39,962 bases of DNA from Lophium mytilinum (GCA_010093605.1 MU004200.1:744001-783962); one strand, 5' to 3'. Shown: positions 2,238 to 36,035, numbered from the stretch's first letter. Notes: generated by a model not told the origin, from the sequence alone. Made by a program: numbers and translations.

Positions 2238-4766
2238 CTAATCTCTACCCTCCATCTTCCACTTATTTAGATTCTTAAGCGAAGTCTCTGTGTGAGGATG
2301 CCGAGGGCCAAGAACCTGCCTGCATTGCTGAACGCACTCTTCCATCAATGAGATGGCCTCTCTATTCCGGCTTTGGAACTTCCACGTGTGTGCCAGGTTG
2401 TTCATGCCAGTTAGCGTGTCCGTATGCGCCGGCCCAAGCACCCTCTTGCGTATCTCTATTACTTGCACGCCTAGCTCTTCGGCCTCTTTCCACCGCCCTT
2501 GATTAGCATACGTCAACGCCAAGTTATTTACGCTAGCTAGCGTATTAGGATGCTCCTCTCCAAGCACCCTCTTTGTTATCCCTACTACTTTTACTCCTAG
2601 CTCTTCAGCTTCCTTCCACCGCCCTTGATTGTTGTACGTTAACGCTAGGTTGCCTATGCTAGCCAGCGTGCTCGGATGCTCTTCTCCAAGCACCCTCTTT
2701 CTTATCTCTACTACTTGCACGCCTAGCACTTCAGCCTCTTTCCACCGCCCTTGATTCTGATATATCAACGCCAGGGTATTTATACTAGCTAGCGTGTCTA
2801 GATGGTCCTCTTTAAGCACCCTCTTTCCAATCTCTATTACTTGCAGCTGCAGCTCTTCGGCCTCCTTCCACCGCCCTTGATGACGGTATACTATTGCTAG
2901 TTCGTGCATGGTGCTTACTATAGAAGGGTGCTCGGCCACAAGTACCCTTTTTCTTGCCTCTAAAACTTGCTTAAACAACTCTTCAGCCTCTTTTGACCGC
3001 CCCGCAAAGCCTAATGATTGCCCTAGCAAGAGCATACTACGTGAAGTATATTCATGCTCTTTGCCATACAGTTTTATAAAAACCTGTACTACCATCTTTG
3101 ATAGCTTCTCGGCATCACTTAGACTTCCTTTCAGCTGTGCATACCAGGCCGCGTTGTGCAACAATAGAGCCCACCGTTCAAGGGATCTCTTAGATCTAGG
3201 CTGCTGCAATAGCGCCGACACAGCATGCGGGAAAAGAGGCTGGCATTGCGCCCAGTTCTCGAATCTCCCTGTCGGAAATGCTCTGCAAAGATTGTCGATG
3301 TATTGCTCCTTCCACGTTTCTAGTTGACCCTGTGCTTCCAGCCATTTCCGCGTGGCGAGCTGCACAAGCCTATGCATGTCGAATGTGGTTGCATCGGTGG
3401 TAAGCGTGATAAAGGAGTAGTTCCTCAGCGTGAGGATGTCGTCTTCGAATCCGTCGTCAACGCTGGCTTCCGACTGGCCATCGTCGTTGTCACTGTCTTG
3501 GAGTCTGTAGTCAACGCTGGCTTCCGACTCGATGTTGTTGCTATTACTGGGCTTGCCGTTTGTCTTCGTAGCGCTCAGGGGTCCATGGCTGTCGCCAGTC
3601 TCACTTCGCCTGTGGATGAGCGTTTCGGGAATCCCCTGCCGGTCAAAGAAGCTCATTAATGAAAGGAGGTCTGCGGCCGACCGCCTTGCCTCAAGTAAGT
3701 GATCAAACGAGATTTGCCACGTTATGAGAATAGAGTTCTTGGCTTCTTCGTCTCTCCGAAGGTGGCCTCCATCGTAATTCAACAGACTTGTCTTTTCCTT
3801 GTCGCTTTTGCGGAACTTCGCTAGGTACTGCTGCACCGAACACCGTGGTGCTCGTTGTCGGATGTACGCCGCCGCCTGCACGAGAGCAAGTGGCATGAAT
3901 TCGAGTGCGTCTGCTAGCTCGGCAGCGTTGTTCTGGTCGACTTCTTCTCCTATTTTCTTCAGCAGAAGCGCTCGTGCGCCGGCGTCGTCCATGGGATTGA
4001 TAGGTATGATATCTCTTTCTTCCACCAGCTGCAATGCCACCGCCCTATTCCGACTGGTGACCAGGACCGAGCCGTTCTTGCTCTGGGGCAGATATGACGA
4101 GAAGTAACGCGGAGGGCCACCGCTTGCTGGTAAAGAGAGAGCAGCGGCATCGTCGGCATTGTCGAGGACCAGCAGCCACTTCCCATTCTTCTCATTGCGG
4201 AGCCAGTTGTGGACAAGTTGGAAAACATCCGCTTTCGGGTCGTTCCGGCCAGCAAGCTTGACTTGGTCTGCGATGGCTTGGTAGCCTTGTTGGATGCGAG
4301 CCGCGGTGCTGGCATGTACCCAGAACACCCACGTCTCTGGTGACTGGTCCGCGATTCGATAGCAGTGCTCAATGGCGAGCTGCGATTTCCTATACCTATG
4401 TTAGGTTAAAGATCTCACCTAGGGGTTCTTTGGGCTTACCCCACACCACCGAAGCCCACCAGCGCTATGCGGGACGCCGGTGCGGAGCATCCTTCGCGTA
4501 TCTGATCGATTAGCGTTCCGCAATCGACAAAGTCTGGGTCGCGGCGAAATGGGACGACGCAGGAAGGGCTCGGTGGGGTCTCCGGTCGTTCTTGAAGAAA
4601 GCAGAAAGCTGTTAGCGTTACTATATCCAGGGCAAACTCTGACCGACACAATCAGCAACTCACGAGCCTGGTGGAAGTGGGCATCAATGTGGCCTGGGTT
4701 ATGCCCAACTTGCAGTCCTTGGTTACTGGAGCCCGAGAACGTAGAGTTGAAGGTAGGATTGGCCAT
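2238..4766 (-). CDS. Fungal NLR: N-terminal PP amyloid signalling motif + NB-ARC + TPR repeats, ~801 aa (exons 4766-4664, 4590-4440, 4389-2238)
   Basis: Introns 4663-4591 (GTGAGT..GCTAAC..AAG) and 4439-4390 (GTAAG..TAG) join MANPTFNSTFSGSSNQGLQVGHNPGHIDAHF, RPETPPSPSCVVPFRRDPDFVD and the P-loop GFGGVG|KS to the 696-aa ORF. That ORF has Walker B WLLVLDNADD, VLVTSRN, MPLALVQAAAYI, MHRLVQ and ~7 42-aa TPR-like units (QGRWKEAEEL...RVLGEEHP.TL). The exon sum of 2406 nt is in frame. Confidence 0.92.
2400..2960 (-). repeat. 126-bp tandem units encoding the NLR's TPR repeats
   Basis: TTCCACCGCCCTTGA recurs at 2488, 2614, 2740 and 2866, an exact 126-bp period (42 codons). Confidence 0.9.
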
Positions 4767-5876
4767 TTTCAAAAGCCCGAAGACCTTGACGCTTGCTGGT
4801 CCCTTGCAAATTTAAGAGTTGACGATGAGTGCGGGGGCAGTTTCCATCAGGCTGAGCTTCAGCTGAAATCTGCCTTTTCATGCAAGGCTGTGGGGCTGAG
4901 CAGATTCGTATCATTTTAGAGGCGTCCTACCTGCTTTTGGCACATCAAGGACGGGGATCCATCAAGCTGGCTGTATCGATTGCCTCTCTTTACGTGTCCA
5001 CCACGCAAGCCTCCTTTTCCGGGCCAGTCTTGAGCTGGCTTTGAGGTTGATTAGCTGGGAGAAGAGGCTGTAAATGTGTTCGTATGACAAAGCTCTAAAT
5101 AACCTGTTTCTGCAGCGCCGTAGCGCTGAGGCACACAAGCCCTACCTATCAGACAGCTAAGATACGAAGTTATCTTGCAGCAAGATATATCAGCTGAACT
5201 ACTCCGGCAACTTAACGCGCCAATAGCTGGCGGCTCAGCCTCGTAGCCTTGTTGAAGAGGCGAAATGAGGCTGGCGCCAGATGGAAAAGAAGCGGGACCA
5301 TCGAACTGAAAAAGCGGCCGGGTTACGGAACTTTTTGAGAGTAAGACTAAAAAGAATGAACCATTTCGCAAGAATGTAGTGGAAGTTGTTAGAACTAACA
5401 GCTCACCGGCAGGTCGGTGAGCGATAGATGAGAGCGGGTCGCCCCGCGATTAGACTGAACACTCCCGAGGCCAGGGACACTGTCCACAGCAAGTTCCCGC
5501 CGATCCCTGACGCCTATCTCCCCTGCTGTATTGGGACTGCAGTATCCGGCCTGGACTTCGAGAGTGCCTCACTGCACAGCCGTGCGCGTTCCAAGATGAA
5601 AACGCTACAGTTTCTACACAAAAAAGATACGCCTAGTACCGCAGTCTAGCCCTGCGTACTTGTTGACTTTGTGCGCTGTTGATAGCTCCGTGTCCTAGGA
5701 CCCCGCAAGGCTGATATTTAGCTCGACGCCGACTGTTAGGCAACGCGTTCACCTTCCAACAACAATCTAAGGAGCAGAGGTCCACAGCAGAACCTTTGTT
5801 GAAGGCTACTTTTACTGCTCTGTTAAGAATTTCCTCTCCGGCCTACGCTCTCTACTCCCCAAACCCGATCTACTCA
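4767..5876. promoter_or_regulatory. Divergent intergenic region and probable bidirectional promoter of the NLR and HeLo genes
   Basis: Start codons at 4766 (-) and 5877 (+) face away from each other, with no credible intact gene between them. Confidence 0.55.
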
Positions 5877-6671
5877 ATGGCAGAAGTTGCCAGTCTTGCT
5901 GTCGGTGTTATCGCTCTTGCTGGACTCTTCAACAACACTATCGAGTGCTTCGAATTCATCCAGCTTGGCCGTAACTTTGGGAAGAGCTTCCAGACAAGCC
6001 AGCTCAAGCTTGACAATGCAAGACTCCGCCTATCTCGCTGGGGCGCTTCCCTAGGATTAGGCGACAGCCCCCAAGAAATACAATCGCTGGAACAGCGCTT
6101 TGGTTCCGGCCAAAAATCTGACCAGGCCGAAGCTCTACTTGGCCAGATCCTCGACCTGTTTGCTGAAGCTGAAGGCATGTCGCAAAAGTATAAGAGGCGG
6201 ACAAAGGCTGGTGACAGCAGCCTCGCAGTATTCCATCCGGAAACAGATCTCGAACCTGCAAACGTAGATCTTCATCGAAAGATGCGGCAACTCTCTATCG
6301 ACCGTCAAAACCGGACTGGCCTGCGGGCGAAGACAAAATGGGCATTGTACGAGGAGAAGCGCTTCAGAAGACTGCTTGAAGATGTCATCGAACTAGTCAA
6401 CAGCCTCGTCGAGCTCTTTCCAGCCAGTCAAGCGGTCCAGCAACAGCTCTGCCAGAGAGAGGCGGCCGTGATTGGTGCAGATGAAGATATCTCGATGTTA
6501 CAGGAGATCGCTGCGGAGCAAGACAAGGCTTTGGAAACAGCTCTTGCAAAAGTTGCCAAGAGTACGCGAGGGTCAACGACTGTTGTGTTTTCTGGCAGCA
6601 ACAATACTGGCTTCCAGCTAGGTTCTAATTCCGGTTCAATTAGCGGCTTTACCTTCGGGAAAGGCAACTGA
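5877..6671 (+). CDS. HeLo (HET-S-like, prion-inhibition domain) cell-death effector with a C-terminal PP amyloid motif, 264 aa, intronless
   Basis: The N-terminus MAEVASLAVGVIALAGLFNNTIECFEFIQLGRNFGKSFQTSQLKLDNARLRLSRWG closely parallels the Podospora HET-S HeLo N-terminus (AGLFNN...CFEYVQLGR.FG...RLSRWG). It also has KWALYE.K.F..L.  The C-terminus is VVFSGSNNTGFQLGSNSGSISGFTF. The first ATG is at 5877; the ORF-track start at 5796 is TTG. Confidence 0.92.
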   Translation: MAEVASLAVGVIALAGLFNNTIECFEFIQLGRNFGKSFQTSQLKLDNARLRLSRWGASLGLGDSPQEIQSLEQRFGSGQKSDQAEALLGQILDLFAEAEGMSQKYKRRTKAGDSSLAVFHPETDLEPANVDLHRKMRQLSIDRQNRTGLRAKTKWALYEEKRFRRLLEDVIELVNSLVELFPASQAVQQQLCQREAAVIGADEDISMLQEIAAEQDKALETALAKVAKSTRGSTTVVFSGSNNTGFQLGSNSGSISGFTFGKGN

Positions 6672-8831
6672 TCGTCGCTTCTCAGTTTGTAGGGGTAGAC
6701 CCAGAACCAATGCTACCAATATAGCGCGATATGAAGAGAGCAGAGGAATTGCGCAAAGAATTAGTCTTTCTCCGTGTTACTAGTGTTATAGTTGAAAGGT
6801 TAGAAGAGAAGTGGACAGGAGATTGTCTTGACGAATAGCGATACAATTGAGTCCTTGTTAAAGCTTCCAGCTTTGCGAAATACTAGGATGCCGACCCGAG
6901 GACCTATCGGCGCCTCCATCCCCATGCTCCTACCATATTGGACCATGCCGCATGCGTGTTAGGCAGCCATAACTTGAACCCAGGGTCGAACACACCAGAG
7001 TGGCTGAATTATCTTGCTGCTCGCTGGCTTTGCGTCCGATCTAACCAATGTGGGCGAGGTTGAGGCATCGCCTGCTGCAATCAGAGAAGGAATTGGACTG
7101 GAGCGATTACTGGAGCCGGACGGAGTCACTTGATCATTACTGAGATCCTATTTGGTGAAGTGGATTTGAGGCTGTGGATGATCCTGGAGCTCCAATGGTT
7201 TGGTATGTTTATAGTGATGAGGTTGATTTTTGAAAGGCTCGGAGATCCGAAACGCCTTGGAGGTCCGCGTGCCTCTCATTGGGCCTCTGATTGGTGAAAC
7301 CCTTGCTAGCACCAATACCGCACTCCTGCCAGCGCAACAAATAACACGTGATGGAGTATCTTTCCAAATCATAGTGGTAATATATCTAGTGTTTCAGGGG
7401 GTTTAGCTGCAACGGCTTACGCTCTAGCTATACTGATGAAAAGATAGATTGTTATGTAAAAGCTCTCTAACGCTAAGCTATCTTAGGTAGTATACTAACT
7501 ATCTTTAGGTAATATCATATCACGTTAGCCTCCCTGGGGGAGGTGGACACTAGATCCAGGGCTTTCTACCAACTTCTGCTAGTAGGGCATGCGGGTTCAG
7601 ATGGCTGCTAATGATCGGGATTGTAATGTTAGAGATGGAGAAGAGGCTGAGAGGCAGGAGGTTGACTTGAAGCACGGGCGAAGAATCGGCCCGGTCGCCA
7701 GCCTCGTCATCATTTCTCAGGTCTCACGCAGTCACGCAGTCTTCTCCGTCCCAACTCACAACCACCAACTTCCCGACCTTTTCACCATGGTCTTATCTCG
7801 AAGTATAGGCTTCTTAAGTCTTTGTCTACGTGCTTCTGCGTGTCCGCTAGCTAGATCTCCGTGCTCGTAACCGATGCCAGTCGCCTGAGAATCATTTTTC
7901 GGTTGATACCTGCAATCAGTCCATCTGTCATTCGTATTATTAGTCTTCCTTTCTCGCAAGGATGTGTAGCTCGAGCATGTTTAGGCTCCGTGCTATCTGA
8001 GTGGCGACGTGTTCTATCGGGCATATTTCTTGATCATTCATGAGCGAGGACCGCAGGACGCTCTCTCTTCATAGTCCTAGTCTCGACACTTCAAAGCTGA
8101 TCTAAAACAATCTGTCTTCCTGTCGGGAGACTTGAAATGCTAGTGACCATCTTGACGGCTTCGGGACTCGTTTTGCCCACGTCTTCGAGCTGTTTCTTCC
8201 GCATGCCGTCAGAATACGGGATGTCGTGGAACCAACCACGAACCAACTCGTGCCACTTCCGAGATCGATCGCACCGGCTATGTAGATATGCACCACTCAC
8301 CACTCTCACACGGACTCCGTTTTGAGCAGAAAGAGGGGTGCAGATGCAAGACGTACCCCGCTGCGGCCAGACTGTCGATCTGGACGCCCACGTACAACAG
8401 ATCTTGCGCAATATCTAAGGTCTTCCCCTTGGAGCACCCGCGTGGACCAACCTCCATATCAGACGGACGACAAATTCTCGGAGAAGAAACTTCAGACTGC
8501 GTAGTGACATCACGCAGCGCGGAAGCAACCGCCAACACGATGCTTGCGGCTCCACCTGTCGAAAGCGCCCACCAATCGGGCGATATATCCCGCAGCAACT
8601 GCATACCAATCCCGCCATGCCAGCTGTCAACCACCTCATGCGGCATCCCAGCTGTCTCGAAAGGTTTTCAGGACCCCGAAGTAGCATGGTCCGCGTGGGG
8701 AAGCGTGGTGGTGTGCTCACGGGTGCCTTACCTGGGGCCTGGGGAAGCCCTAGGCGGAATATCATATCACTCAGGGTCCTTCTGAGTCGGGCTTCCCAAC
8801 TCTCGGAATGACTGCACATTTGGTTTCCACT

Positions 8832-10566: not shown

Positions 10567-12827
10567 TCAGTTCGCCATCCGCCACGCCCTCAACGGCAAC
10601 GCCTGCAGCCTCATCGCCGCTGGCCGTATGAAACCCAAAAACGTCACCACGCCAATGACCACACAGATCACGTTCATGACGTAGTAGCCATCAGTCGTGA
10701 TATTGCATGTTCCACCCCCGTCCTTACAGCGGTGCTTATCCGCTTCTAGCGCGCAAGAAAACGGAGAGGTGATGAGTGGAGACTTGAGGCCGTCTAGTTT
10801 CTGGTCGGTGGGTGGGATACAAGTCGCAGCGGTAAACAGATCGACGAATTTGAGGATAAAGAAGCGGGGGAACGTGCCGCCGAGATTGGAGACCCTAAAC
10901 ATGGTCAGTGGTCTGGTTTCGGAGTGGAGGAAAATGAGGGGAGCTCACGTAGCTAAGAGCGTCATGTAGGTACCCCCGATGACTGGATCCGCAATTCGAG
11001 CATGGAAAGCGCTGATCGCTACGAACATGACTGTGTTCATGAAGGTGCTATAGACGTGCTCCACAATCACAGTAAGAAGATACCATGTTGGCACGCCAGT
11101 ATCCGGTGTGACGCCCGAAGGGAAGATCATGACCACAAATTGAGCAAAGACCGCAGCTCCTAAACGTCCCATGAATGCCCAGGACCACAGTTTCATGGGT
11201 GGGTAGGTCTGGCACCATTTCCCAGCGTAGTAGCCCAGTGCGATCTCAAATGGAAAGTCGATGAGGACGGTAAGAGCGAGGTCTTGCTGACTGAAGCCCT
11301 TGTCTAGTAATTTGAGGTTCGTGACGCCATCGTTGGCCTGGAATCCAATCTTCGCGATCAAATGAATGAGAATGAAGGTTTGGATGTTCTTAAGCTTTAA
11401 GATGCCGCCCATGACTTTGTACACGTCCCATATGCCATCGGTGTTTCTTGTGCGCTCTTCGGTCTTCATGATGGCGAGACCGGCTGTCACGATGAGATAC
11501 GCCCAGCCCCAGAATTTCAGATATCCGTCCAGAGTCATGAGACCGACGTCCAGGTGCGCGTCAGCAGGACGAAACCAGCGATTCGCAAAGTCCTTCGAGT
11601 TGAACGCAAGGAAAACGGTGTATGAGAGGAACTGGCCAGCCGTAAGACCGACGGTTTGCGCGGTCGAGGCATACGAGAGGTTTTCATGCGAAAGGAGCGT
11701 CAACGCCCAACCTGTTTGGATATCAGCAATTTGTCTCCAGAAACGTCCCCGTTTTAGACTTCACGAGTTTCCTGCACATCTCAAGACTCACCATCAACAG
11801 CAATATCCTGCGTGGCGCACAGAAACACGAGCGCAAACCACCACCACGTGAAATTCCACACTCCACCGCCATCTTTCGCCTCGGCACTGATCATCATCTC
11901 TTGTACACGTCCGCCCAGCCACAGCATCGCAAATCCACTGATTGTCTGAATTGGCAGAATCCAACTCTTCCTTCGCCCCAACTTCGGGCTCCACACAGCA
12001 TCCACGATGGGACTCCACAGCAGCTTCAAGCTGTACGGATAACTAGCCAGCGAGAACACGCCAATCTCGGTGTACGAGACGTGGCTCTTCAGCAAGAACG
12101 GCACCGACCCCGTCGCCAGCCCCATCGGAATACCCTGGAGGAAGTATAGCAGCACGAGCAGCAGGAAGTTCGACTGGTCCTGCTTCGGCAGCTCGAAGAA
12201 ACCCTTCGACGAGGCCTCGGAGTCGTGTGTCATGGTCGGCACGGGGTCATCTAATGAGAAGGAGTGCCGTCCTACCAGACTTGCCGTCTGCGATTCTGGA
12301 CTGTCGAGGGGCGCATGTTTCCGGCGGTGCTCGACCCCGTTCATGGCGTCGGCGCCGCGTGCGCTGCCGTTGGCGCTCGAGGGCGTCTCGGGGCGGGCAG
12401 AGGAGGCGGACCGGGGAGGTTGTGGGGAGCGGGATTGGCGGCCTTTTTTGCCCATCTGATGTTTGGTAGGGTTACTGGGGTCTTCGTCTGTGGCTTCTTC
12501 GTCGTCTGAAAATTCAGAGGGGTCGAGGAGGTGGGCGTGCTCAGGGGGGCTGCGAGAGGACGAGGAGGTGGGGATGTGGAGGGGCGACAGGTGCCTTCTG
12601 TCTTTTCTCTTGGTGTTTGAAGATATATTCTGCGATTCTGAAGTATCTAGAGAGGGTTCGATCGTCTGTAACTCGACGTCGTGCTGGCTTCTCGCGCGGC
12701 GATGTTGCGCGTACAGGTTCTGCTCGTACTGAGCGCGGTGGGTAGGTAGTATATGGGTCTCGGTGGCCGAAGGAAAGGAGGGCGGTATATGCGATGGTTC
12801 GAAAGCGTCACTTGTAGTGGGAGGCAT
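10567..12827 (-). CDS. Acetyl-CoA transporter 1 family MFS protein (AT-1/SLC33A1, Acatn), ~708 aa (exons 12827-11792, 11711-10949, 10894-10567)
   Basis: Motifs LLVLLYFLQGIPMGL, YPYSLKLLWSPIVD, ATQDIAVDG|WALTLLS and DPVIGGTYMTLLAT|VSNLGGTFP, with canonical GTGAG..AG introns. An alternative start is possible at ATG 12455. Confidence 0.92.
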
Positions 12828-13087
12828 CCATGAAGACCCCTCGCGGCAGAAGACGTGTGCTAGTGTCAAAGACGGCCCTATGCAGGAACGGAACGTGTCC
12901 TGAACGATGCAAGGCGAGTGGCGGATCAGCGAGTAGTGGGGGCGATGGAATGGGAGGGGAATGTCAAAGAGTGAATGAGAGAGTGAACAGAGAGAGCGGT
13001 ATTCCAGGGCGCGAGAGAGCTATTGACAGCTCCTCCCGTTGTTCCTGTCGAGATAACGGAACTGAGTCCTGTTTCATGCTCGACGGC

Positions 13088-14378: not shown

Positions 14379-16906
14379 TCACCGCCCCGTCTGGCAAAGC
14401 GCAATACAAAACTCCCTGAAATCGCCCTTGGTCGCTTCTTCCAAATCCTCCTCTATCACGCGTCCGTACTTTTCTTCGTACTCCGCTTTGACACGGATCA
14501 TATGTAGTCTATCCCAATGCAATCGTACCAGCCGCGAGATGAGAAGTTCGTAGCGCTGCTGCCGCTCGTGCTTGGAGACGGACTCTTTCGAAAGTTTGGA
14601 GGATGACGAGCGCGGGCCGGGTGCGGCGGGCTCGGGAGGCTCTATGAGGTCCATGAGGGCGTGATGGAGGAGCATGCTGTCGCGTGCGGGCCGGTTGATG
14701 GCGCCGTTGAGGATGTGAGCTATGACTTCGCCCTGTTGCGTGTGTTAGCTTATGCATTCCAATTTTGAAAGGCCTGGGGAAACAGAAGGAAGTGAGTCTC
14801 ACGTACCACAAGATTGTTACTCTTCCTCAATGCATCCCTCGCAAAGTTCCCCTGGTACTTCCTCTCGTACGTTCTCAGTACCTCTCTGAGATGCTGGTCA
14901 CTCCTCATGACCACAACGCCTAACATCGCCGTCTCGCCCCCTTCTCTCGCCTTCAATGCTTTGTAAAGCGTATCAACGTCCTTATTCCGATACTCCATCG
15001 GCCACTGATCGCTCTCCTCCTGCCGCTCTCCCTCCAGCGCCATCAGTACCGCTTTGCGAAACTTGTCTGCCTTGAGCTCTTTATCCATACACTTCGTTAA
15101 GCTGTCCCCGTACCGCTTATCCTTAAACGCGTCTTTAATCTCGCGGATTTCATGATTCTGCCGCCCCATGAGCGCCTCGACGAGGAGCTCCCGCCGCGCG
15201 TTGCTAGACTGGTACCAGAAATTTGCCCAGTAGCCCTCGCTCTCATACTTCCCTAGTGCAGTCACGTGGCAGATTTTGCCGAAATTGGATGAGGGAATTT
15301 TGAGCTTGATGTGCTTCGCGATGTTGATGCCGCGGCCTTGAACCTTGCAGTGCCGCTTGTACTCGGCGCGGAGCTCGAGCATTTGGTCGTGCGAGAGCAT
15401 TGGGAGGATGTCGATGAGGGTGTCGACGTTGGGCGTGCGGCTGGCGAGGGCGTCGACGAGGGCTAGGGCGTCTTCGGTGGCGTCGTAGATCTTGACGCGT
15501 TTTTCTTTCTGGGATTGGGTGGTCAAAGCCATGGCTTCGAGGGCAAGCTTGTCGCCCTTGCGGCCTTTCGAGGGAGGCGAAGGGTGGCGGCCTGAGGTCG
15601 ACGGGGCACGATGTCGGCTTGATGTTGAGGTGGCACGGTGTCGTCCGTGGATAGAAGAGGTGGAGTCACGTGGGGATAGGCTGTTAAGCATGGGGAGGTC
15701 GTCAAGGTCGTCGTCAGGGATCATCATGGCGGAGGGCATGGGAGAGATGGACTGGTAGACCCCGTGATAGGCTTCTAGGAGGGGGCTTCCTGGTGGTGCT
15801 TGGCCCGGGAGAATCTGCTGTATGTCTGGGCGATTGCCGCTGACAGATAGACGATCCATGCGAGGCATGCCGGGCGAAGGGGCTCGCAGATCGGGACGTG
15901 GGCCGTTTACGGACATTCGGTGTGGGTGGAGACCTGGAGAAGGGGGTTGGGGCATCCTAGAGCCTCCCGGGACTATCTCGACGACAGCGTGATCACCATA
16001 ATACCCTGATGGCTTCCGGGAGTGAGACGGCGCCGATTGCTGGATAGGAGGGGGAGATGGTTGGTAGTGAGCTTGAGGTGGAAGGGGCTGTTGATATTGA
16101 GCTTGAGGTGGAGGAGGGGCTTGTTGATATTGGGCCTGGGACTGAGGATGAGCGTGCTGATATTGAGCTTGAGGCGGAGAGGGCTGTCGCTGGCCATGTT
16201 GAGGCGTGGAGGTGTAATCGTAGGACTGGGGCTGCTGGTATTGCAGTGCCGCAGGTTGCGCACTATGTTTTATGGGGGGCTGCTGTGCCGATGAAACTAC
16301 AGGCTTCGACGTAAAGGTGATCTTATCCGGCGCTGGTGCATACTGGAACCCTCCAGTCCCTCCCGCTGCCCTTTGGGGACCGGACTGATTCGCAGCATTC
16401 GGCGTATACCCGTATTGCGGAGCCTGAGAATACGAAACTGGCTGCCCATACGCATAAGAAGGCGAAGTCGGCGATGCTGGTCCCCGGTCCTGCGGCTGAT
16501 TTGGATACTGATACTGTTGAGCCTGCTGCTGCTGCTGCTGCTGCTGGATATATCCCGGTCTCTCATGAGGCGGGAGATCAGTGTAGTCGCCCATGGTGAT
16601 GTCGCTCGCCATCGGGGGCGGGGGAGCATTGCTTTGAGCACTCATCTCAGCTCGGTGACCTCCTGAAGCTCCTCCCAGGAGGTGGGCGGGGGTTACATAC
16701 CCGTGAGGTTGTGCTGACGGCTGTGAGGGCTGCCTAACCTCATACTGCGGGGTAGCTCCCACCCCCCCTTGGCCTGGCGCTGCATATGAATAGGCAGCGG
16801 GACTAGGTGAGGGAGCCCGCACGTTGCTGCGCGATCTATCGCGTTTCCCTCCATCGCGCGACTTGGAGCGCGAGCGGCCCTTTCGGTCGTCGACGCGCAA
16901 CGACAT
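14379..16906 (-). CDS. Fungal annexin of the ANXC4 type with a long P/Q/Y-rich N-terminus, ~817 aa (exons 16906-14807, 14732-14379)
   Basis: Annexin-like repeats LIDILPMLSHDQMLELRAEYK, LLVEALMGR.N.EIREIK and ATKGDFREFCIAL. Intron 14806-14733 (GTACGT..GCTAAC..CAG) joins SNNLV|GEVIAHILNG. Confidence 0.85.
16523..16546 (-). repeat. (CAG)8 microsatellite encoding polyglutamine in the annexin N-terminus
   Basis: CTG repeated 8 times on the + strand; YIQQQQQQQQAQQY in the translation. Confidence 0.9.
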
Positions 16907-17647
16907 GGCAGGGATGATGGGGTCTGATGTTGAAGGATGAAAGAGGAAGTCAATGGCACGCGCAGAACATCAGATGGAAAGAGAAGAGGAAGGCTGATAC
17001 GCGATTGAGAGAGTAGGAAAGCAGAATGAAAGTAGAAGGAATAGAGAGCGCGAGAGGAAGACTTGAGGTTTCAGGCGCGTAGAAATTTGGATGGCTGGCG
17101 GGGGAGAGGCGTTTGCGGGCGGCGGTTCAGCCGCTTACAGGGATTATTTGGGGGCCAGAAGGGGTTTTGCAGTCCGAGGCGACATGTTGAACCGTCACAA
17201 GGGGAGTACAGCATTACTAACATCTCATTAGACGCAGCCAGAATATTCATGACGGCCATATAGTCTTACGACACACGCCTTGGGAGTTTCAGGGCGCATG
17301 CCGTGGAGTAGTGTAAGCTAAGCAGTGCAGATCACGTGATGGCTGCATTGTCCAGATCTAGCATGGTCAGGTTCTTGTGAATCGAGAAGCCTCCAATCCA
17401 TGGCCAGGCGATAGAGTATGTGAAGTCTCCAATTTTAGTCTGAGTGCTCGAATAATCAGGGCGTCACGACTCGAGACAGTTGATGTTGAAGGAAGAATTT
17501 CCAAGATTTGATATCGTCGAAATCATTAAAGCCTAGTCTATTCTCCTCCAGAACAGTTTGTAACCACTCCAAGAATTACCAATCCAGTCACACCACTTCT
17601 TACACTTTCCATCTCTACTCAGGCCTGTGACACTTTCTCTTCCAACT

Positions 17648-19150: not shown

Positions 19151-20637
19151 TCAAGACGTCAAGTCCCAATGTCTCCGGATGATGGGTCTCGCGGGGTCCC
19201 ATGGTCCGTACATCTCGTTCTTGTACTTTTGTAGTCCGATTAGCCACCAGCAGCAGATACCCATGACAAGGAATGTTAAAACGCTGCCGAGGACTGCCCC
19301 CACAATGGCTGCGACTGCACCCCCGTTCGAGATGATTACCCCCATTCCTCCCGATGCAGCAATCACGAGAAAGTAAGTTAGAGTCCGGTGGCCGGCCGAG
19401 GAACTGTTCCGAAGTTGGCGCCGGAAAACAGGAAACAGACCAAATACTTCTATTGAGAATAGCGTGATAGAGAAAACATGTGTGGTAGAGGGTAACCGGG
19501 AAGCCATGACGGCTGAAGCCATAACAGCAGCATTGGTAGACAAGGACGCAGGGAACCTGAAGCACCGATTAGCAAGGTAGAAATAGGAGCATAAAGGGAG
19601 AAGTACTGCGCTCCAGTTCCGCCCCCATAGTCAAAGAAGAACACGTTCATGCACATCAGCCACGAGCTCATCGCCCAAATGGAATCGCTAGTGGTTGAAT
19701 CTGTCAGAGACTTCAATATCGGGCTGAGTCCAAGCAATGCGCAGTAGATGAGAAGAGCAGACTTGGCCGTTGCTAGACGCTGTTTATTCCGAGATGATAG
19801 CGAGGATGCAGGATCGCCGTATGGAGGATACTGGGTCCCTGAGCCAGATTGTCCAGTCGAGGATGCCGACACATTCGAAGTAATGGACGTTGCACTCGCA
19901 CTGTGAGAGTGACCTAGCCGAGGACTGACACTTCCGTTTGGTATCAGCAGGCCTAGCCCTTGCGGGTCCTTCAACGAGCTGGTCGAGCTTGCGCTGGATG
20001 CGTCTTCCACGACCTCCTTTTCAACGAGGGCCTGCACCTTCGCGGCCTCTTCTCGCCCCATCCAGTAATCCCACAGTATCCAGCCCATCACTGTACTAAT
20101 ACTGCCAGCGCTGACCACTGCCACCGGGGAGACTTCAAATTCTTTGATTGCCACAAAACAGCATATAAAGATAATGACCGAAGCAATGTGCTGTATGATA
20201 ACGGTGGAGTCGGCCATGAGCGACCAGAATTCGTAGGGCTGGAGGCGAGGATTTCGTTGCAAGTGATCGAGGAACGTCTCTTCGTCGGTGTAGTTATCCG
20301 GATCTGAAATTCAATCAGCATTGGTATACTTATACTCCGAGTCTCGTGGCTTACATGGCTGCTTGAACCACAACAGCTTGTTCCAATGCCTCTTCCTCCG
20401 TCTGCTGCCACTCCGACCTCTCTCCTTCTCCCTTTGTCTGCGCGCCTCGGTCATGCCACGTACAGAGCTTCCGCTGGAAGCCCCAAGGCCGAGAGGACTG
20501 TGCTGGCGCACTCTTCGTGGTGGAGAGGTTGCGAAGAAGGCATCCTCAGGGGCCAGTCGCGACGGGTCGGGGGCGCCAGTGCGATTGTGGAGGAGCTGGC
20601 GTGAGGCTGCATTCTGCTGGACAGTAGTGGTTGACAT
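19151..20637 (-). CDS. GPI2: GPI-GlcNAc transferase subunit Gpi2/PIG-C, ~461 aa (exons 20637-20355, 20303-19607, 19556-19151)
   Basis: Motifs WNKLLWFKQP|YPDNYTD.ETFL.HLQRNP, LSPILKSLT.STTSDSIWA, SLSTNAAVMAS.VMASRL and KNEMYGPWDPARP, with canonical introns 20354-20304 and 19606-19557. Confidence 0.95.
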
Positions 20638-23564: not shown

Positions 23565-25425
23565 TCATCTCTTGCCGCCTTCCCGACCAACCGCATCTCC
23601 CACTCCTAAGTAATTCCAGATAGTCCACCGCTCTCCTCCTAGAAGCCCCGCAAGCAGCCCAACCAAGAAAGCAAATACCGTGAACTGGTACCAACTAACT
23701 AGCGGCCCCGTCATCACTCTATCAATCTCCCGTCCTGTCTTCTTGGTCTCAAACTCGCCTGTCTTCCACGGCACCGCCATCTCATGATCCTCCAAAACCT
23801 GCCCCGCAACAATCTTACTGCCGGCAAGCACAATCGGCACACCAGTCCCGGGATGGGTACTTGCGCCCACAAAGTACAAACCCTTGATCTTCCGATGCTT
23901 CGTCCCAGGCCTGAAGCTCAGCACATTGAAGAACGAATGCGAGAGTCCTAGAATCGCGCCTTTATCGAGGTTAAAGGTAGACAGCCAGGTAGTTGGCGTA
24001 TTGACGCTTTCGTGGATGATCAGCGGGGCGAGATCGACGCCTGTGCGCGCCTGAATGGTGCCAATGACTGCTTCTCTGGCGGTTGCGAGCATAGTGGGCC
24101 AGTCCTGCGTGTTGCTTCCGTGCGAGGAGCTACCTTTGTGCTCGGTGGAGGTTGAGGAGATGAGATGGCCGACCGGAACGAGCACGACGACGGCGTCACG
24201 GCCGGTGGGGGCAGCGGTGGGGTCGATACGAGAAGGGACGTTGACGTAGAAAGAGGGGTGCGTGGGGATCAGATGTTCCTTGAAGATGGAGTCGAAGCTC
24301 GTGCGATAGGCGTCGGCGAGGAAGATGTTGTGGGCTGTAAGTGCAGGGACCTGGGTGGAGAGAGACCAGTAGAAAGAAATACTGCTACAGGAGGCTTTGC
24401 GAGTGGAGAGAGAAGCTGATTCAGATGTGCAATGGAGGAGGTTGTTGTAGGCGTAGACAAGGTCAGCGTTGCAAATTACGATGTCGGCTGTGAGGGTTGA
24501 GCCGTCGAGGAGGACAACGCCGGTGGCAGTGCGGCCATCGGGAGAAAGGCGGATGCGCGATATGGGGGTTGAAAGGAGGTATTCAACCCCTAGCTTTTTG
24601 CCAATATTTACGAGGCCCTCGACGACCTGTATCGTGTTAGTGATGTTGAAGATGCTGTTTCGGTGGTTCAGTGGCACCTTGTGAAATCCACCAATAGGAT
24701 ACCATATGCCTTCAGCGAGCTCCGTGTACTGCAGAAGACTATATGTCCCAGGGGCATCGAATGGACTCATCCCCATATACATGCTTCCGAACGTGAATAC
24801 TCGTCTAAGTCTCTCGGTCCAGAAATACTTCGACGCTCGGGAATAGATGCTCTCAAACGGATGCAATGCTAGCAGATGTCTAAGAAAGCTCGGCCTCGCC
24901 ATAGACATTAGGCCCGTGAAGTTCTTTCTTAACACGTGTGTGACGCTGAGCTCATAGTGGCGATGCGATTCTTGGAGGAAGCCTAGGTATCGGTCGAACC
25001 CATCTTTGCCCTCCCACTTTTCAATCTCAGTTTTCATGCGAGAGATGTCAGTGCTAAGTTCGAACGATTCGCCATCGCCGAACCAAATGTTGTAATTCGG
25101 TTCGCATTTGAGAAGCTTGATCCCTTCGGCTTCCATAGTTGTGTCAAGGTCGCGAAAAGCCTCTTCGAAAAGATGAGGAAGAAGTAGAAGCGACGGGCCT
25201 TGATCGAATCGCTAGATGCAGAATGTGAGACCTGGAAAATAGATTAGAAGTCTTGAGACTCACATATTCATCCCGATTAATTAACGAACATCGTCCACCT
25301 GTGAAGTTGTTCTTCTCCACGACGGTTACTCTGAACCCAGCCTTTGCAAGCCGTGCCGCTGTTGCAACTCCTCCAATACCAGCCCCAACGACGATCACGG
25401 TCCTCGACCCCTTCTTGGTGGCCAT
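23565..25425 (-). CDS. carB: Phytoene desaturase (CrtI/Al-1 family), ~585 aa (exons 25425-25264, 25211-24678, 24626-23565)
   Basis: FAD motif VIVVGAGIGG..EKN..TGGRCS, RFDQGPSLLL, SMYMGMSPFDAPGTYSLLQY and FVGASTHPGTGVP, plus a C-terminal hydrophobic helix. Confidence 0.96.
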
Positions 25426-25648
25426 AGTCTATTTGAGCGTTGAGAGTGTACATTTTGTCGTTGTGTTGCTGCGAAGTCATGACGTGGGAGGTCCACAAAG
25501 CTCGAGGTTGCCTCGGTTCAACTTGCACATTTTGTCCATAGAGATTGATTATTATGCACCGTACATGCAGTGTCATGAGCAACTCATGAGTGGCAATCGC
25601 TAATGAGTCTTCGAGTTCATTGTGATATCACTAGCAAGGTATTAAGTA

Positions 25649-27650
25649 TCAACCTCTCAAAGCTCGCCACGCCACTTTAATCCTCCTCAGCGTCGGCACA
25701 GTAGCTTTGCCAGCCTTCACTGTGTAGTGCTCCTCTCTCAAAACGCGGCCGATTTCCATGTAGCTCTCTACAGCCACTCTCATTGGCCCCCGTGTTTCTT
25801 GGGGTAACTTTTCGATAGCTCCCCGTGCTTCCTCATAGATCCTGAATGCTCTATCCAATAGCCGGGATCGAAGACGCTTGATCCCAAGGCTGTCAGGATC
25901 CTGAAGAACGTCCCGAGCGGTTAAGCCTTCCTCCTTAAGCCATTCTTGGGGCAGATAGACCCGGTTCATTCGTGCATCAACAGCAATGTCTCGCGCAATA
26001 TTCACGTACTGCAAAGCAACACCCGTCCGGGCTCCTGCGCTAAGGATTTCAGTTCGCTCAACTTCGTCAAGGCCGGTCTTGAAGTGATAGAAGACCAGCT
26101 GCAAGCACAGCATCGCCACCGTGCCAGCAACGCGACGGGCGTATGTCTCGAGGTCTCGTTCTGTTATTATTGGCCAATGCACGCTCTGTTCGCATGGAGG
26201 GGGATCTGCAAACTCCAAATCTTGTTTGAAGCCAAGGAGCATATCCTCAAAATGTTTCTTGGCCAGGAAACGGAGTGGTAATTGGGAAATTGCCTGGTTA
26301 CCGTCAGACAAATTGGGGATCGGGGCGCAAAAGTGTTCGCGGAATGATCGTACTACAGATGATGGGTAACGATGCCGATATTCTTCCCTAAGGAGGTCTT
26401 CCAGGTCGCGAATGGAAGCGTGTGCTTGCTTTGGTGTTGCAGCATCGTCGACCATGTCATCAGCAACTCGACACCAGGAGTATCTAGGGTTGTAAGTCAT
26501 AGCACTACGACAGGTGATCAGGCCGGCTTACAGCAGTAGTAGATCTACGCGTAACTTACCACTGAATGTGGAGCTAGCCAAATAGAAGCTGCGGCTCTTC
26601 CGCTTTAGCCTGTTCGCCGCGTCTTGTATACACAATAATCGTTTCTCATCGTAGTCAGTTGCGGAGAGCAGCAGGGCTTTCACCAAGAGTATTGGCGACG
26701 GTAAGGAAGGTACGTTCCGAAACGTATCTGGAAAGCTTTCCAGGACAGCAACCGCATTATCAAAGGCCAGAAGACCGAAAACGACTAGCGTGTTGGTGAT
26801 GAGAAAAAAGACCGCTTCTCTTGTCAATGTTAGTGGCCTAGGTCATCGCGGTAGAGAAAACAACCTACTCAATTTCAAGGCCGTCCCACAAGTGGACACC
26901 CAGCTTTGTTCCAGACGCTATAACCCAGGTGCCCCGTTGCAGGGCCAGAGTATCCACGTGCCAAAGGTACAGCGTTGGTATCAGGATGGGAAGGGCGGTA
27001 TTGATTAATGGTAGGCCAAGGATGAATTGGTATGCTAAACTCCAGAGAAGCAGCAAGAACGGTGCAGCCCAGAGCGCTATCAAGCCCATGTATGATGCCC
27101 TTCCATTATCTCTAATCATGCCAATGCTCGCGATGATCGCGCCTGCAAAGAACAACTGTCCCGCGATCCTACATAGCCGCCATGACGTGTTGTTTGAGAC
27201 CCGTCGACGCTTCAGTTTTGGCTCTGCTCGCAAATACGGTAGTTGGAATGTAGCTTTGCTAAGCATGAGGTAGAGGATCGAGGTTGTGTAGGTCTGGATG
27301 ACGAAGAAGAAGAGCTCTTCTGCGGGAATATCAAATAGCGTAGGCCCAATTATCACGTTCGAGGGGTATGTCCATATGCAATTACGGATTAAGTACGAGT
27401 CCCACGGAACGGTAGCAAGTACAGCAATCTATCGTAGTGAGCGCGTTGTTTTAGCATCTAAGCAGAGGTTCTCACTGTAACTAGGAACCCAATCTTGTAG
27501 AGGTCGAGTTTGGAAATAAGTGGTTGATAGAGCAGCGTGAGAAGTACTGCTGGTGGTATTGTGTACAACACGTGTCTGACGCGATGTAAGCGTAGTACTA
27601 AAGAACGAGGTAGGTGTAACAGCGTACACCATAGCATATTCGATCCCCAT
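25649..27650 (-). CDS. carRA: Bifunctional lycopene cyclase/phytoene synthase (Al-2/CrtYB), ~601 aa (exons 27650-27628, 27575-27476, 27428-26869, 26819-26532, 26483-25649)
   Basis: Cyclase motifs HVLYTIPP, PWDSYLIR, IPAEELFFFVIQT and IEEAVFFLITN; synthase motifs KSRSFYLAS, YSWCRVADDMVDD and LQYVNIARDIAVDA. Four canonical introns; exon sum of 1806 nt is in frame. Confidence 0.95.
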
Positions 27651-28195
27651 TGCACTCTTCTGGGCCGTACTCAGCCTATAGAATATGCGAAGAACGCGAC
27701 TTGACAAGCGGGGAACGCTCTCAACGGTCGAACAGCGGTCGGGACGAATTGGAGGATATGAGTAGGACAAAAGTCACGATAGGTAGCGTCATGGTGCCGA
27801 AGTGACAGCTGCAGCTCATGTGGGCCTTTCGTGGTGAGTAGTGGGAAGTGGTAGCGGCGTCTGAGCTTTAGCTGCGAGGGGCGCGAAGCCGCACTATCCC
27901 CGCCGGGTTCCTGACCAAAGTGACGGTTGGTGAAGTCATCGATCTCAGACCATGGCATTGTTCATGGGCCCCATGCTTTTCCTCGGACTAGAATGGCGCT
28001 TTTGACACAGAGTTAACCTTTGCCATGCCGGAGTCGTCGGCTGACTTCCATAACGCTTTTCCATGCCGTCATGGAGCTATCCGAGGCACAGCTTAGCATC
28101 TAGGTAGGATGCTTTCTTCTAAACTTTTTTGTACCCAGCTTTGCTCGTAATAGCTATTGACATTGAGAATGCGCCCGTGTCGCTGAACACCCAGA
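27651..28195. promoter_or_regulatory. Bidirectional carRA/carX promoter
   Basis: 545-bp divergent intergenic region, rich in CATG, with CGTCATG at 27787 and 28067. Confidence 0.65.
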
Positions 28196-30332
28196 ATGTC
28201 CTTGGATGGAACCAGAGGAAGTCGAGAAAAGCATCCGTATGTATTTCTTCCTCGCAGAAAATGGGTATCCTCTGATCATCGGTAGATACCTCTCTGGAAA
28301 TTTCGCCCCCATCCAGGAGACTTGGTCTGAAACACCGTGTAGCTATGTAGGGACTATTCCAGAAGCTTTGTTTGGCGGGGAATACATCAGAAATGGAGGA
28401 AACCCCGTCTCTAATAATGATCTCGGACGAGATGCACATTGGTTTGATGGCGACGGAATGCTCGCAGGAGTCATCTTCAAGAAGAACGAGAAACACGGAT
28501 CTATCACACCTCAATTCGTCAATCAATACATCTTGACAGACGTCTACTTATCCACCGTGGCCCACCCAAGTCTCAAAACACCAATTCTGCCAAGTATCAC
28601 CACGTTGGTCAACCCCATATCTACCCTCGTGTATATAATCTTTCGAATATTTCGGGCTGTTTTCTTAGTGTTTATATCCCATCTTCCGGGGTCACAGATT
28701 GCGATTAAAAAAATAAGCGTCGCGAATACCAGCATAATATACCACGATGGACGCGCATTGGCAACCTGCGAAAGCGGACCACCTATACGAATCCAGCTCC
28801 CTGGATTGGAGACCGTCGGCTGGTACGATGGTCTTCATGCGCAAGGAGAACCCAGAGCCGCGAAGGGTCCAAAGAGTGGAGGCGACCCAGCGCCGTTTGG
28901 GGGCTCAGGGATGCTCAGTTTCTTGAGAGAGTTCACGACGGGGCATCCCAAAGTCGACCCTGACACCGGAGAGATGATACTTTTCCACTGCACCTTTATT
29001 CCACCATATGTGCACTACTCCATCATCCCATCTACCCGCAACCCCAGCGTCGACATCTATCCTCATCATAGACTCCTTAACTCTCCGGTTCCTGGCATGT
29101 CTGGAGCGAAGATGATGCACGACTTCGGAGTATCCAGGACACACACGATCATAATGGACCTTCCACTGTCACTAGACCCTTTCAGCCTACTCAAAAACCA
29201 ACCCGTCGTGTCCTATGACCCTTCGAAGCCAGCCCGATTTGCCATATTCCCAAGACAGGACACTTCTAAGACTCGCTGGTTCGAGACTTCAGCTTGCTGC
29301 ATCTTTCACACCGCAAATGCCTGGGACACGGTTGATGCGAAGGGAGATGTCACCGCAGTGAACCTTCTCGCATGCCGTCTCACATCTGCCTCCCTCGTTT
29401 TCAGCGCTGGGAACATCGCGGCACCTCAGATCGTGAACTCCACCTACAGAGAAGAGCGCAAGCCAATTTCTTTTTTCGCGCCATACGACTATGATGAAGC
29501 CCTTACCAACCTTCCTATCTCTGATACCGCGGACCGAGACCTTGAAGGCGAACGGCAGCCACTTCTGGGTAAAACTTCGTCGAACTGCCGTACAGTCCCC
29601 GACCTCGACGACGAGGAACAATGCCGCCTTTACTACTACTCCTTCTCTCTCACTACCCCAGTTTCAACGATCACGAGACAATACGCTCTCTCTGCTATAC
29701 CTTTCGAATTTCCGACGCTGAATCCAGCCCGAGAAATGGGGGATGCTCGATTCATCTACGGTTGCAGCACTAGCACTTCGTCGTTTGGCGCGGCGCTTGG
29801 CCGAGCTACGAAGATTGATGTACTAGTGAAGATGGATGTTCATGCCTTGATTAGCGAAGGCGAAAAGAGGCCGCCGCGCAGCGTCACGGGGTGTGTAGAC
29901 AATCGAACGATCAAAGAAATAGTCGAGAGTGGGAATTTGAACGACGCTATCAAATGCTTCAAGATGCCCGAGGACTGGTACGCTCAAGAAGCCCGATTCG
30001 TCCCTCGCAACGCTGGGTCGTTAGACTGCGAGGAAGATGATGGATTCCTGCTCTTCTACGCTTTTGATGAGGGCCAATTGGACAAAGAAGGAGAGTGTGC
30101 ATCGAAAGCGGCCTCGGAACTTTGGATCATGGATGCGAGTGACTTCCGTAGCGTTTTGGCCAAGGTGAAGCTGCCGCAGCGGGTCCCGTATGGTTTACAT
30201 GGAAAATGGTTTTCGGAGGAGATGATACGGAGCCAGAGAGAGGTCGAAGAGGTTCGAAGGGTGCCGGATAAGAGTGACGGGAAGGGGTTTTGGGGGACGT
30301 TTAACCGGATGATGGTGAAGGCGGGCTGGTGA
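28196..30332 (+). CDS. carX: Carotenoid cleavage oxygenase (retinal-forming, RPE65 family), ~695 aa (exons 28196-28236, 28286-30332)
   Basis: Splicing the GTATGT..TAG intron 28237-28285 gives MSLDGTRGSREKHP|YLSGNFAP, restoring the conserved HPYL.GNFAP. Also HWFDGDGML and four candidate iron-binding His (TGHPK, MMHDF, IFHTAN, GLHG). Confidence 0.95.
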
Positions 30333-31005: not shown

Positions 31006-31089
31006 TCTCAGAACAAGACGGCGACGCGGCTCGCTACGACAGCGGCTCCGGCTTGGATCCAAACCAGTCAACGTGCTTGAGTTTCCAAG

Positions 31090-34000: not shown

Positions 34001-36035
34001 AGACTAATGTTTGTAGGGCTCACATACTGGACCGACGACGTCTACTCGGACAATCCGGAGCACTCTTACGCCTACTACGCCCGGATATACGCTTTGTTCC
34101 AAGTATTAGCCCTCTTATCGCTGCTTCTCCTCGCCATAACGCTCTGGGTTGTCGCCATTAAACGAGCAGGTGCCAATATTCACCAGGAAGCCTTGCGAAC
34201 TCTTATTCGAGCACCATTGAGCTTCTTCACCAAGACGGATACTGGTGTGATAACCAACTTATTCTCGCAGGACCTGAACCTTATAGATACAGAGCTACCA
34301 GAAGCCACGTTAAACGTGATGATGGCCGTAAGTCTACTCATTAAATTTGAAAGGAAGCTGACAGTGGCGTTACTTTCACTCTTTGGTAAAGACTTTGGAA
34401 AAACTTATCCAGTAGTCTGACGCAGAACTCGAAGGTCTTTCAATCACTTGGACAAGCGGCTGTTATGCTTACATCATCTGTGTGGTTGGCCATAGCCTAT
34501 CCGCTCATCGGCGCCATACTGTACGTGGTGGGAAGATTCTACCTGAGGACTTCCAGGCAGCTCAGAATCCTAGACCTTGAGGCTAAAAGCCCCTTGTAGT
34601 AAGTTTACGTGTCCGCTATAGTGTGTTATGCTAATATTCATCCGTTAAGCACAAATTTCCTTGACACTGTCAAGGGCATCACAACTCTAAGAGCCTTTGG
34701 TGAGTAGTGTGTAAACCCAACTCGACTCCGAGAGCATGCCTGGATGTGACATTTTGCGGCATCTCGAGTCAAGACATGTACGCCGCTGCTAACATGAGAG
34801 ATGTGAAGGTTTCCTTCCCAATGATGTTCAAAAGAACGCTCGCTTGATTGATACTAGCCAACGACCGGCGTATCTCCTACTTATGATTCAAGAGTGGCTC
34901 AACCTCGTTCTCGGCCTCGTCGTCATGCTAATAGCAGTGGTTCTGGTTACCCTTTCCGTCCGGCTTCACTCCAAATCTGGTTTCGCCGGTGCTGCTTTGT
35001 ACAGCCTCATTTCTCTCGGCGAGAACCTCACTGGCATTGTCCTCCACTACACCAGGCTTGAAACCTCTATTGGGGCTATTGCCAGACTCAAGACGTTCAA
35101 AGAAACTGTCAAGGCGGAGGACAGAGAAGAAGAAGATATTGTTCCACCTGAAGAGTGGCCTAAGGGGGGCGTGATAGAGTTGAAGGGCGTGTCCGCAGGT
35201 TATGAGTAAGAGAATCACAGCTCGCGAAAACCACATCATCTACATAATGCTAACGCCCCGGTATAGAGCCGAAGAGCAAACCAACGGAACACCCAGCCTA
35301 GCTCTCCGCGACATCCGCCTAACGATCAAACCAGGCGAAAAAGTAGCCATCTGCGGCCGCACTGGCAGCGGGAAATCCAGCCTTATCGCACTGCTCCTTA
35401 AGCTCCTCGATCCACTCTCCGAAACTGCAGGCAAAGCCATAATCGATGACACAGAGCTCCGTCGCATTGACCGACCTACGTTGCGCCAGCGCATCATTGC
35501 AGTACCCCAGGAAGCCGTGTTCTTGCCCGACGGTTCTACCTTCCAGACCAACCTAGATCCTTCCGACGTTTCAGCGCCCGAAGAATGCCAGGCGGTCCTC
35601 GCGGCTGTCAGCCTGTGGGAGTTCGTGCAGGAGCGTGGTGGTCTAGGCGCAGGAATGAGCCCGGGGACGCTCAGCGCCGGGCAAAGGCAGCTCATGTCGG
35701 TTGGGCGTGCGCTCCTTCGGCGTCGTATTCGGGCGCGGAACGCGGATCGTAGGGGTACATCTCTAGATAGCGGCATCTTGTTGTTGGATGAGGTGAGCTC
35801 GAGCGTAGACCACGAGACCGAGCGGGTAATCCAGGAGATTATCAGGACTGAGTTCAAAGACTACACGGTCGTAGCTGTGAGCCATCGGTTGGATATAATT
35901 ATGGATTTTGATAGAGTCGTCGTTATGGACTCGGGAGTGGTAGTAGAGGATGGGAAACCTGCGGTGTTGGCTACAGAAGCGGGGACTCGGTTTGGCGACT
36001 TGGTGCGGGCTGGGATGAAAGAGAAATTAAGGTGA
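31090..36035 (+). CDS. ABCC (MRP-type) ABC transporter, ~1460 aa (exons 31090-31284, 31354-32135, 32194-33908, 34017-34327, 34435-34598, 34650-34699, 34809-35205, 35267-36035)
   Basis: N-terminal FDF...FEQLFFSIVPS. NBD1 has GPVGSGKS, LSGGQ and LLILDD; TMD2 has NLFSQDLNLIDTELP and RQLRILDLEAKSPLY; NBD2 has GRTGSGKS, LSAGQ and LLLDE. The exon sum of 4383 nt is in frame. Confidence 0.92.

Follow-up and report, generated by a model that had tools for sequence, protein, structure and literature searches.

A probable two-gene NLR/amyloid signalosome of the PP-motif class, pairing HeLo-PP with PP-NB-ARC-TPR, in Lophium mytilinum

Adjacent fungal gene pairs in which a NOD-like receptor (NLR) carries one copy of the amyloid motif of its neighbouring effector have been described for several systems, and the signalling mechanism has been proven experimentally for HELLP/PNT1 and HET-S/NWD2 (PMC5485727, PMC7885112). 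For HELLP/PNT1 of Podospora anserina, Bardin 2021 (PMC7885112) reports that the PP (pseudo-palindromic) regions form prions, that NLR residues 1-31 seed and that HELLP is toxic. According to Daskalov 2012 (PMC3321046), the PP motif was first defined in HeLo proteins of Arthroderma otae and A. gypseum, where it forms a short C-terminal extension; the genes of these proteins adjoin NB-ARC/TPR STAND genes with a homologous N-terminal extension, and the consensus published in that paper is FxGx(x)NxGLQLxGxNxGxL. Here we analyse a stretch of 39,962 nt from Lophium mytilinum (GCA_010093605.1, MU004200.1:744001-783962; hereafter the window, with positions counted from its first letter), a Dothideomycete of the order Mytilinidiales. 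The window contains an NLR gene of PP-NB-ARC-TPR type divergent from a HeLo-PP effector gene, which very probably form a two-gene NLR/amyloid signalosome of the PP-motif class. The features of the pair are as follows.

2238..4766, minus strand: NLR gene (PP-NB-ARC-TPR), 3 exons, 801 codons, TAG stop at 2240..2238
4766..4664, minus strand: NLR exon 1, 34 codons plus 1 nt; N-terminal PP core (residues 9-31) at 4674..4742
4663..4591, minus strand: NLR intron 1 (predicted), 73 nt, GTGAGT...GCTAAC...AG, separating the PP exon from the NB-ARC exons
4590..4440, minus strand: NLR exon 2, with linker, VPFRRDPDFV stretch and the first P-loop half GFGGVG
4439..4390, minus strand: NLR intron 2, 50 nt, GTAAGC...TAG, cutting the P-loop as GFGGVG/KS
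4389..2241, minus strand: NLR exon 3, with the remaining NB-ARC, DUF7779 and the TPR array
3795..4471, minus strand: NB-ARC domain, residues 75-283, spanning intron 2 (nucleotide limits converted from residue numbers)
2241..3062, minus strand: TPR region, residues 528-801; residues 528-737 form five clear units of 42 aa
4767..5876, no strand: divergent intergenic region, 1110 bp between start codons
5877..6671, plus strand: effector gene, intronless, 264 codons plus stop at 6669-6671
5895..6506, plus strand: HeLo domain, Pfam residues 7-210
6573..6647, plus strand: single C-terminal PP motif, Pfam residues 233-257 of 264

The NLR exon limits, the effector coordinates and the two motif peptides given in an earlier note on this DNA, made from the sequence, were all correct on retranslation. 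The architecture that it proposed, a PP-NB-ARC-TPR receptor head-to-head with a HeLo-PP effector, agrees with the divergent genes and with their Pfam matches (PP, NB-ARC, TPR_10 and HeLo), and the profile searches that it had suggested (HeLo PF14479, NB-ARC, TPR and PP) returned all four families. It had also called the system hidden and easy to miss because introns cut the motif and the P-loop; this does not hold, because the pair is correctly modelled in the public record, where both genes are already called with a PP domain. The spliced NLR model is residue for residue the public 801-aa 'TPR-like protein [Lophium mytilinum]' (P0124; database search with exon 3, 100% identity), whose precomputed Pfam list already has PF17046 and PF00931, and the effector is a called public gene with PF17046 and PF14479.

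The N-terminal part of the effector matches PF14479 with E = 1e-52 (179.4 bits, profile positions 2-204 of 205), and it aligns with the solved HET-S HeLo domain (2wvo) with E = 8.4e-37 over residues 2-226, hydrophobic N-terminal segment included. This match to solved HET-S is decisive for the predicted identity of the effector as a HET-S-type HeLo protein. In the Pfam search at E <= 1, a level at which HMMER filters lose most matches above about 0.1, no HeLo-like domain (PF17111) was found in the effector, nor did Pfam give a match to the HET-s prion-domain family at E <= 1. The tail past residue 230 comprises 34 residues with one PP motif (PF17046, 30.9 bits), whose core VFSGSNNTGFQLGSNSGSISGFT occupies residues 237-259, encoded at 6585..6653. 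The AlphaFold2 model of the effector is helical over residues 2-230, with a final helix at 217-230, and is coil from residue 231 (pLDDT, predicted local distance difference test, block means of 43-54); since the helices end at 230 and coil follows, the PP motif is predicted to sit immediately after the last HeLo helix.

These features place the Lophium pair closest to the Arthroderma pairs, which have the identical HeLo-PP / PP-NB-ARC-TPR architecture and whose published consensus (PMC3321046) fits both Lophium motifs; they belong to a different fungal class, and the likeness is drawn from their published description. That the effector domain is HeLo rather than HeLo-like, and that a single PP motif stands in place of two HET-s repeats, had been put forward in the earlier note as notable; the domain assignments stood, while the combination was already known from Arthroderma (2012) and from Wojciechowski 2022. 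HELLP/PNT1 of P. anserina and CgHELLP/SBP/PNT1 of Chaetomium globosum resemble the Lophium pair in being adjacent two-gene clusters with one motif per protein (PMC7885112, PMC5485727), and PNT1 has the same domain order, PP-NB-ARC-TPR, as the Lophium NLR. However, the killer domain of HELLP is HeLo-like (PF17111), whereas that of the Lophium effector is HeLo (PF14479), and the C. globosum cluster includes a third PP gene encoding an SBP-type lipase. In the Lophium window, neither a regular expression nor a profile found a third PP gene (SesB-type/SBP-type lipase, as in C. globosum). HET-S/NWD2 of P. anserina shares the killer domain with the Lophium effector, as well as the logic of an adjacent NLR carrying one copy of the effector's amyloid motif; it differs in that HET-S has two 21-residue HET-s repeats forming a beta-solenoid, whereas the Lophium effector has one PP motif, and in that NWD2 is a NACHT-WD protein, whereas the Lophium NLR is NB-ARC-TPR. 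At the motif level only, the pair also resembles the RHIM of RIPK1/RIPK3 in mammalian necroptosis, with which it shares the G-phi-Q-phi-G core (GLQVG in the Lophium NLR and GFQLG in the effector), the proteins being otherwise unrelated; partial cross-seeding between PP and RHIM has been published (PMC7885112).

More broadly, Wojciechowski 2022 describes 296 NLRs with the PP motif NLR07, PP going with both pore-forming and enzymatic effectors, and pairs of NLR07 with PF14479 appear within the first 30 of the 237 places of its supplementary file 7, among them those of Talaromyces islandicus and Penicillium camemberti. The names Lophium and Mytilinidion are absent from 11 supplementary files of that study (files 9 and 10 not covered).

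The kinship of the effector with HET-S, together with the prions formed by HELLP PP regions in Podospora (PMC7885112), raises the alternative that the PP tail serves chiefly as a self-propagating prion in allorecognition, in the manner of het-s/het-S and independently of the NLR. We consider this very unlikely, as a toxic-competent HeLo domain cannot propagate as a prion and the conserved adjacency of the NLR would be left unaccounted for. At one aligned position, which we take to be the residue deciding toxicity, the HET-S chain has H, the HET-s chain P and the Lophium effector N, so that the HET-s proline is missing.

The evidence that ties the two genes together is the motif that they share. 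The translation of NLR exon 1 is MANPTFNSTFSGSSNQGLQVGHNPGHIDAHFHQA, and its residues 9-31 align without gaps to effector residues 237-259 with 11 of 23 identities; both motifs follow the pattern F-S-G-S-x-N-x-G-x-Q-x-G-x-N-x-G-x-I, in agreement with the gapless alignment and pattern of the earlier note. Four tests exclude a chance origin of this match. When the NLR motif was compared with every stop-free 23-mer from the six reading frames of the whole window (35,020 in all), the effector tail was the best match and stood alone at 11 identities, followed by one 23-mer with 8 and four with 7. When the 60 C-terminal residues of the effector, which are rich in G, S and N, were shuffled 20,000 times, 11 identities were never reached. 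BLASTP of exon 1 against the effector gave E = 3e-6. A profile built from 82 effector tails retrieved the NLR exon-1 piece with E = 4.1e-7 among 1445 six-frame open reading frame (ORF) pieces, the runner-up having E = 0.42. Moreover, the regular expressions N.G.Q.G and G.Q.G.N match just these two sites in the six frames of the window.

Given the G/S/N-rich composition of the motif and its length of only some 20 residues, one could suppose that the two genes are independent and that their resemblance is a low-complexity coincidence or a relic. We give this almost no credence: apart from the shuffles, which keep the composition, both motifs pass the curated PP model PF17046, the motif positions are near-invariant in 82 homologues, the pairing recurs in relatives, and the two ORFs, both intact, occur in RNA-like contigs. 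The curated cut-off of PF17046 is 23.2 bits (likewise 23.2 bits for PF14479, 23.5 bits for NB-ARC PF00931 and 26.7 bits for NACHT), and the NLR motif scores 32.0 bits with exon 1 alone and 25.2 bits within the whole protein (residues 2-27 of 801). According to Wojciechowski 2022, the PP motifs of NLRs begin mostly at positions 5-9.

The Pfam name of PF17046, 'Ses_B', invites a reading of both motifs as sigma motifs. We dropped this reading on the strength of two papers according to which PF17046 is misnamed and represents the PP motif; the first of these papers, however, gives that number to sigma in its introduction.

On the NLR side, the NB-ARC domain was matched at residues 75-283, and the conserved stretches are GFGGVGKS (the P-loop, 80-87), LLVLDN (157-162), LVTSR (194-198) and MPLAL (250-254), with an MHR motif at 423-425, beyond the NB-ARC span; the labels P-loop, Walker B, GLPL-like and MHD-like for such motifs are ones that we presume to carry over from plant and animal NB-ARC proteins. 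DUF7779 follows at residues 320-436 (Pfam), and TPR_10 matches the C-terminal part with 258 bits in 6 stretches (Pfam). The DNA encoding the TPRs includes a 126-bp tandem array at 2392..2881 with 3.9 copies and 78% matches (Tandem Repeats Finder), and the five 42-aa units are 43-81% identical to one another at the protein level. We also considered placing the NLR among the fungal NLRs with highly conserved repeats, for which Dyrka 2014 uses a criterion of more than 85% internal identity; the units fall short of that value and the class was rejected.

Both genes are transcribed. The sole public run used for transcripts, X1, is labelled only 'RNA?' and contains 73% of the words sampled from the stretch. 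One of its contigs is colinear with the genome over 5734..7200, covering the effector, and another, of 925 nt, skips exactly 50 nt at 4390..4439 in the NLR gene, the skipped segment having CT..AC ends on the plus strand, that is GT..AG on the minus strand. This skip confirms intron 2 and shows that X1 contains spliced sequence. In relatives, intron 2 appears to be present in L001, L003, L009 and L049, whose tblastn matches break near residues 75-86, and absent in L004, L005, L010, L012, L013 and L046, which give one unbroken tblastn match.

Intron 1, whose removal would link the PP exon with those encoding NB-ARC, is predicted on the basis of its splice signals, which are canonical, and its conserved position. 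In the NLR orthologue of Mytilinidion resinicola (P0166), the junction residues at intron 1 are identical. In 9 related loci, the PP motif and the next exon are 50-63 nt farther apart in the genome than in the coding sequence; at the same place, the PP frame contains a stop in 6 of these loci, the frame changes in 2 more, and the frame is open in 1.

We then asked how far the effector and its NLR partner extend among other fungi. The effector search returned 341 proteins at E <= 0.001, and both PF14479 and PF17046 are present in 112 of the best 120 of these, the query included. Among the matches listed, effector homologues occur in many Dothideomycetes, including M. resinicola (81% identity) and Cenococcum geophilum (78%), as well as in a Mollisiaceae Leotiomycete (73%) and the Lecanoromycete Puttea exsequens (66% and 63%); the NLR orthologue of M. 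resinicola is 70% identical, against 81% for its effector, and the contigs carrying these two orthologues are equal in length. An alignment of 82 of the best 120 effectors, which omitted five longer forms (278-413 aa) and the rows after P0090, shows F238, S239, G240, N243, G245, Q247, G249, N251, S252, G253, S256 and G257 to be invariant or nearly so.

A scan of metagenome contigs yielded 52 related loci, of which 19 have an effector with a C-terminal PP motif; 13 of the latter are informative, defined as having a PP-tail effector (regular expression) and at least 700 bp upstream. An NLR adjoins the effector in all 13, and the arrangement is head-to-head in 11, 10 of them recognised because the NB-ARC part gave a tblastn match on the opposite strand upstream of the effector, and one (L015) by eye. 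In the remaining two, L028 and L030, whose sequences are identical, the NLR lies downstream of the effector on the same strand. In L015, an upstream PP exon leads into a NACHT-like P-loop region in place of NB-ARC (300-800, minus strand; by eye), implying that the NOD type of the sensor varies around one effector family. The strict N.G.Q.G core is kept in 9 of the 13 neighbouring NLRs, and the others carry one core substitution. No NB-ARC match occurred anywhere in the loci of 17 complete HeLo paralogues that lack a PP tail and have at least 700 bp upstream, a NACHT-type partner being undetectable by the query used.

Other arrangements were also seen. In L002, two PP-NLR starts (4903-5262, plus strand, and 1221-1241, minus strand) flank one HeLo-PP gene, one of them head-to-head upstream and the other downstream. 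The distant HeLo paralogues L043, L044, L045 and L051 end in HET-s-like tails (for example ...GNKYGGKDFFDD) and not in PP. A larger group of HeLo paralogues, of about 234-241 aa, is without a recognisable amyloid tail and without an NB-ARC neighbour.

By homology with HET-S/NWD2 and HELLP/PNT1, the pair would work as follows. The TPR array of the NLR may bind a cue, upon which the NLR would oligomerise via its NB-ARC domain, gathering the N-terminal PP motifs so that they take a cross-beta fold. This fold could then template the single C-terminal PP motif of the neighbouring HeLo protein. Because that motif would abut the last HeLo helix, its conversion is expected to free the hydrophobic N-terminal HeLo helix, which would insert into the membrane and kill the cell.

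Several points weigh against this interpretation. The NB-ARC call is weak, because PF00931 clears its cut-off narrowly (29.1 versus 23.5 bits) and NACHT also just passes (26.9 versus 26.7 bits). The X1 contig over the NLR stops at 4471 and leaves 4472..5056, with exon 1 and intron 1, uncovered, a gap that is evidence neither way. The AlphaFold2 model of the effector is of moderate quality only (mean pLDDT 64; pTM, predicted template modelling score, 0.59). In the portions of the literature consulted, no bench work on a HeLo-PP pair was found, the PP effectors studied there being HELLP (HeLo-like) and SBP. Finally, the motifs do not covary within pairs: across 11 pairs, cognate motifs share 10.8 of 25 identities and non-cognate motifs 10.7 on average, and 9210 of 20,000 permutations reach the observed value. 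The motifs therefore give no evidence for this NLR as the specific partner, beyond adjacency.

This lack of covariation is in line with a variant of the signalosome model, not in contradiction with it, in which the effector acts as a conserved hub for any of several PP-NLRs in the genome. Such a role would fit an effector tail that stays nearly constant in relatives, near-invariant over the 82 homologues, while the NLR-side motif varies; it would also fit the two PP-NLR starts around one effector in L002, the NACHT-like NLR paired with the same effector type in L015, and the several NLR07 NLRs per effector within one genome that are found in the first 30 of 237 places of supplementary file 7 of Wojciechowski 2022. 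However, the window contains just two PP motifs, and the adjacency of an NLR in 13/13 informative loci argues for a preferred partner. We thus regard the hub as possible but rather doubtful, and retain the signalosome formed by the two adjacent genes as the best explanation of the locus.

Fungal NLRs are usually described as undergoing birth-and-death turnover. A different pattern is suggested here, as the named effector homologues from Dothideomycetes, Leotiomycetes and Lecanoromycetes are 63-81% identical to the Lophium effector and share its near-invariant tail, and the head-to-head NLR is kept in most of the sampled relatives. On these grounds we put forward, tentatively and with no great confidence, that the HeLo-PP effector and its divergent PP-NLR make up an unusually long-lived module; if so, this would suggest a conserved trigger.

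The two genes lie on opposite strands, as listed above. A 298-nt X1 contig maps to the middle of the intergenic region (5057..5354) with no joint to either gene, and might be a piece of a 5' untranslated region or a separate short transcript; a minus-strand ORF at 5051..5449, which has no Pfam match, overlaps it. Elsewhere in the window are an acetyl-CoA transporter gene with two exons (10948..13019), a gene for an annexin-repeat protein (14753..16969), GPI2 (19453..20310) and an ABC transporter gene with a TMD0 domain (31081..36032). With such housekeeping-type neighbours, the pair has ordinary genomic surroundings, not those of an NLR cluster. An apparent carotenoid cluster spans 23568..30329. 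Its minus strand carries a flavin amine-oxidoreductase-type ORF (phytoene-desaturase-like, 23568..25211) and a squalene/phytoene synthase (25652..26527), its plus strand an RPE65-type carotenoid oxygenase (28167..30329).

Taken as a whole, the locus is a well-formed but ordinary pair of a class described in 2012, already correctly annotated, and current understanding is unchanged by this particular locus. Its contribution is one more HeLo-PP / PP-NB-ARC-TPR pair, clean and expressed, from a saprobic Dothideomycete; the effector family with its head-to-head partner is widespread and well conserved. Any HeLo-PP pair could help to address the activation of a HET-S-type pore former by a single RHIM-like motif, and the Lophium pair would offer a natural test of whether one PP rung abutting the last HeLo helix may fire the HeLo domain, as compared with the two-rung beta-solenoid of HET-S.

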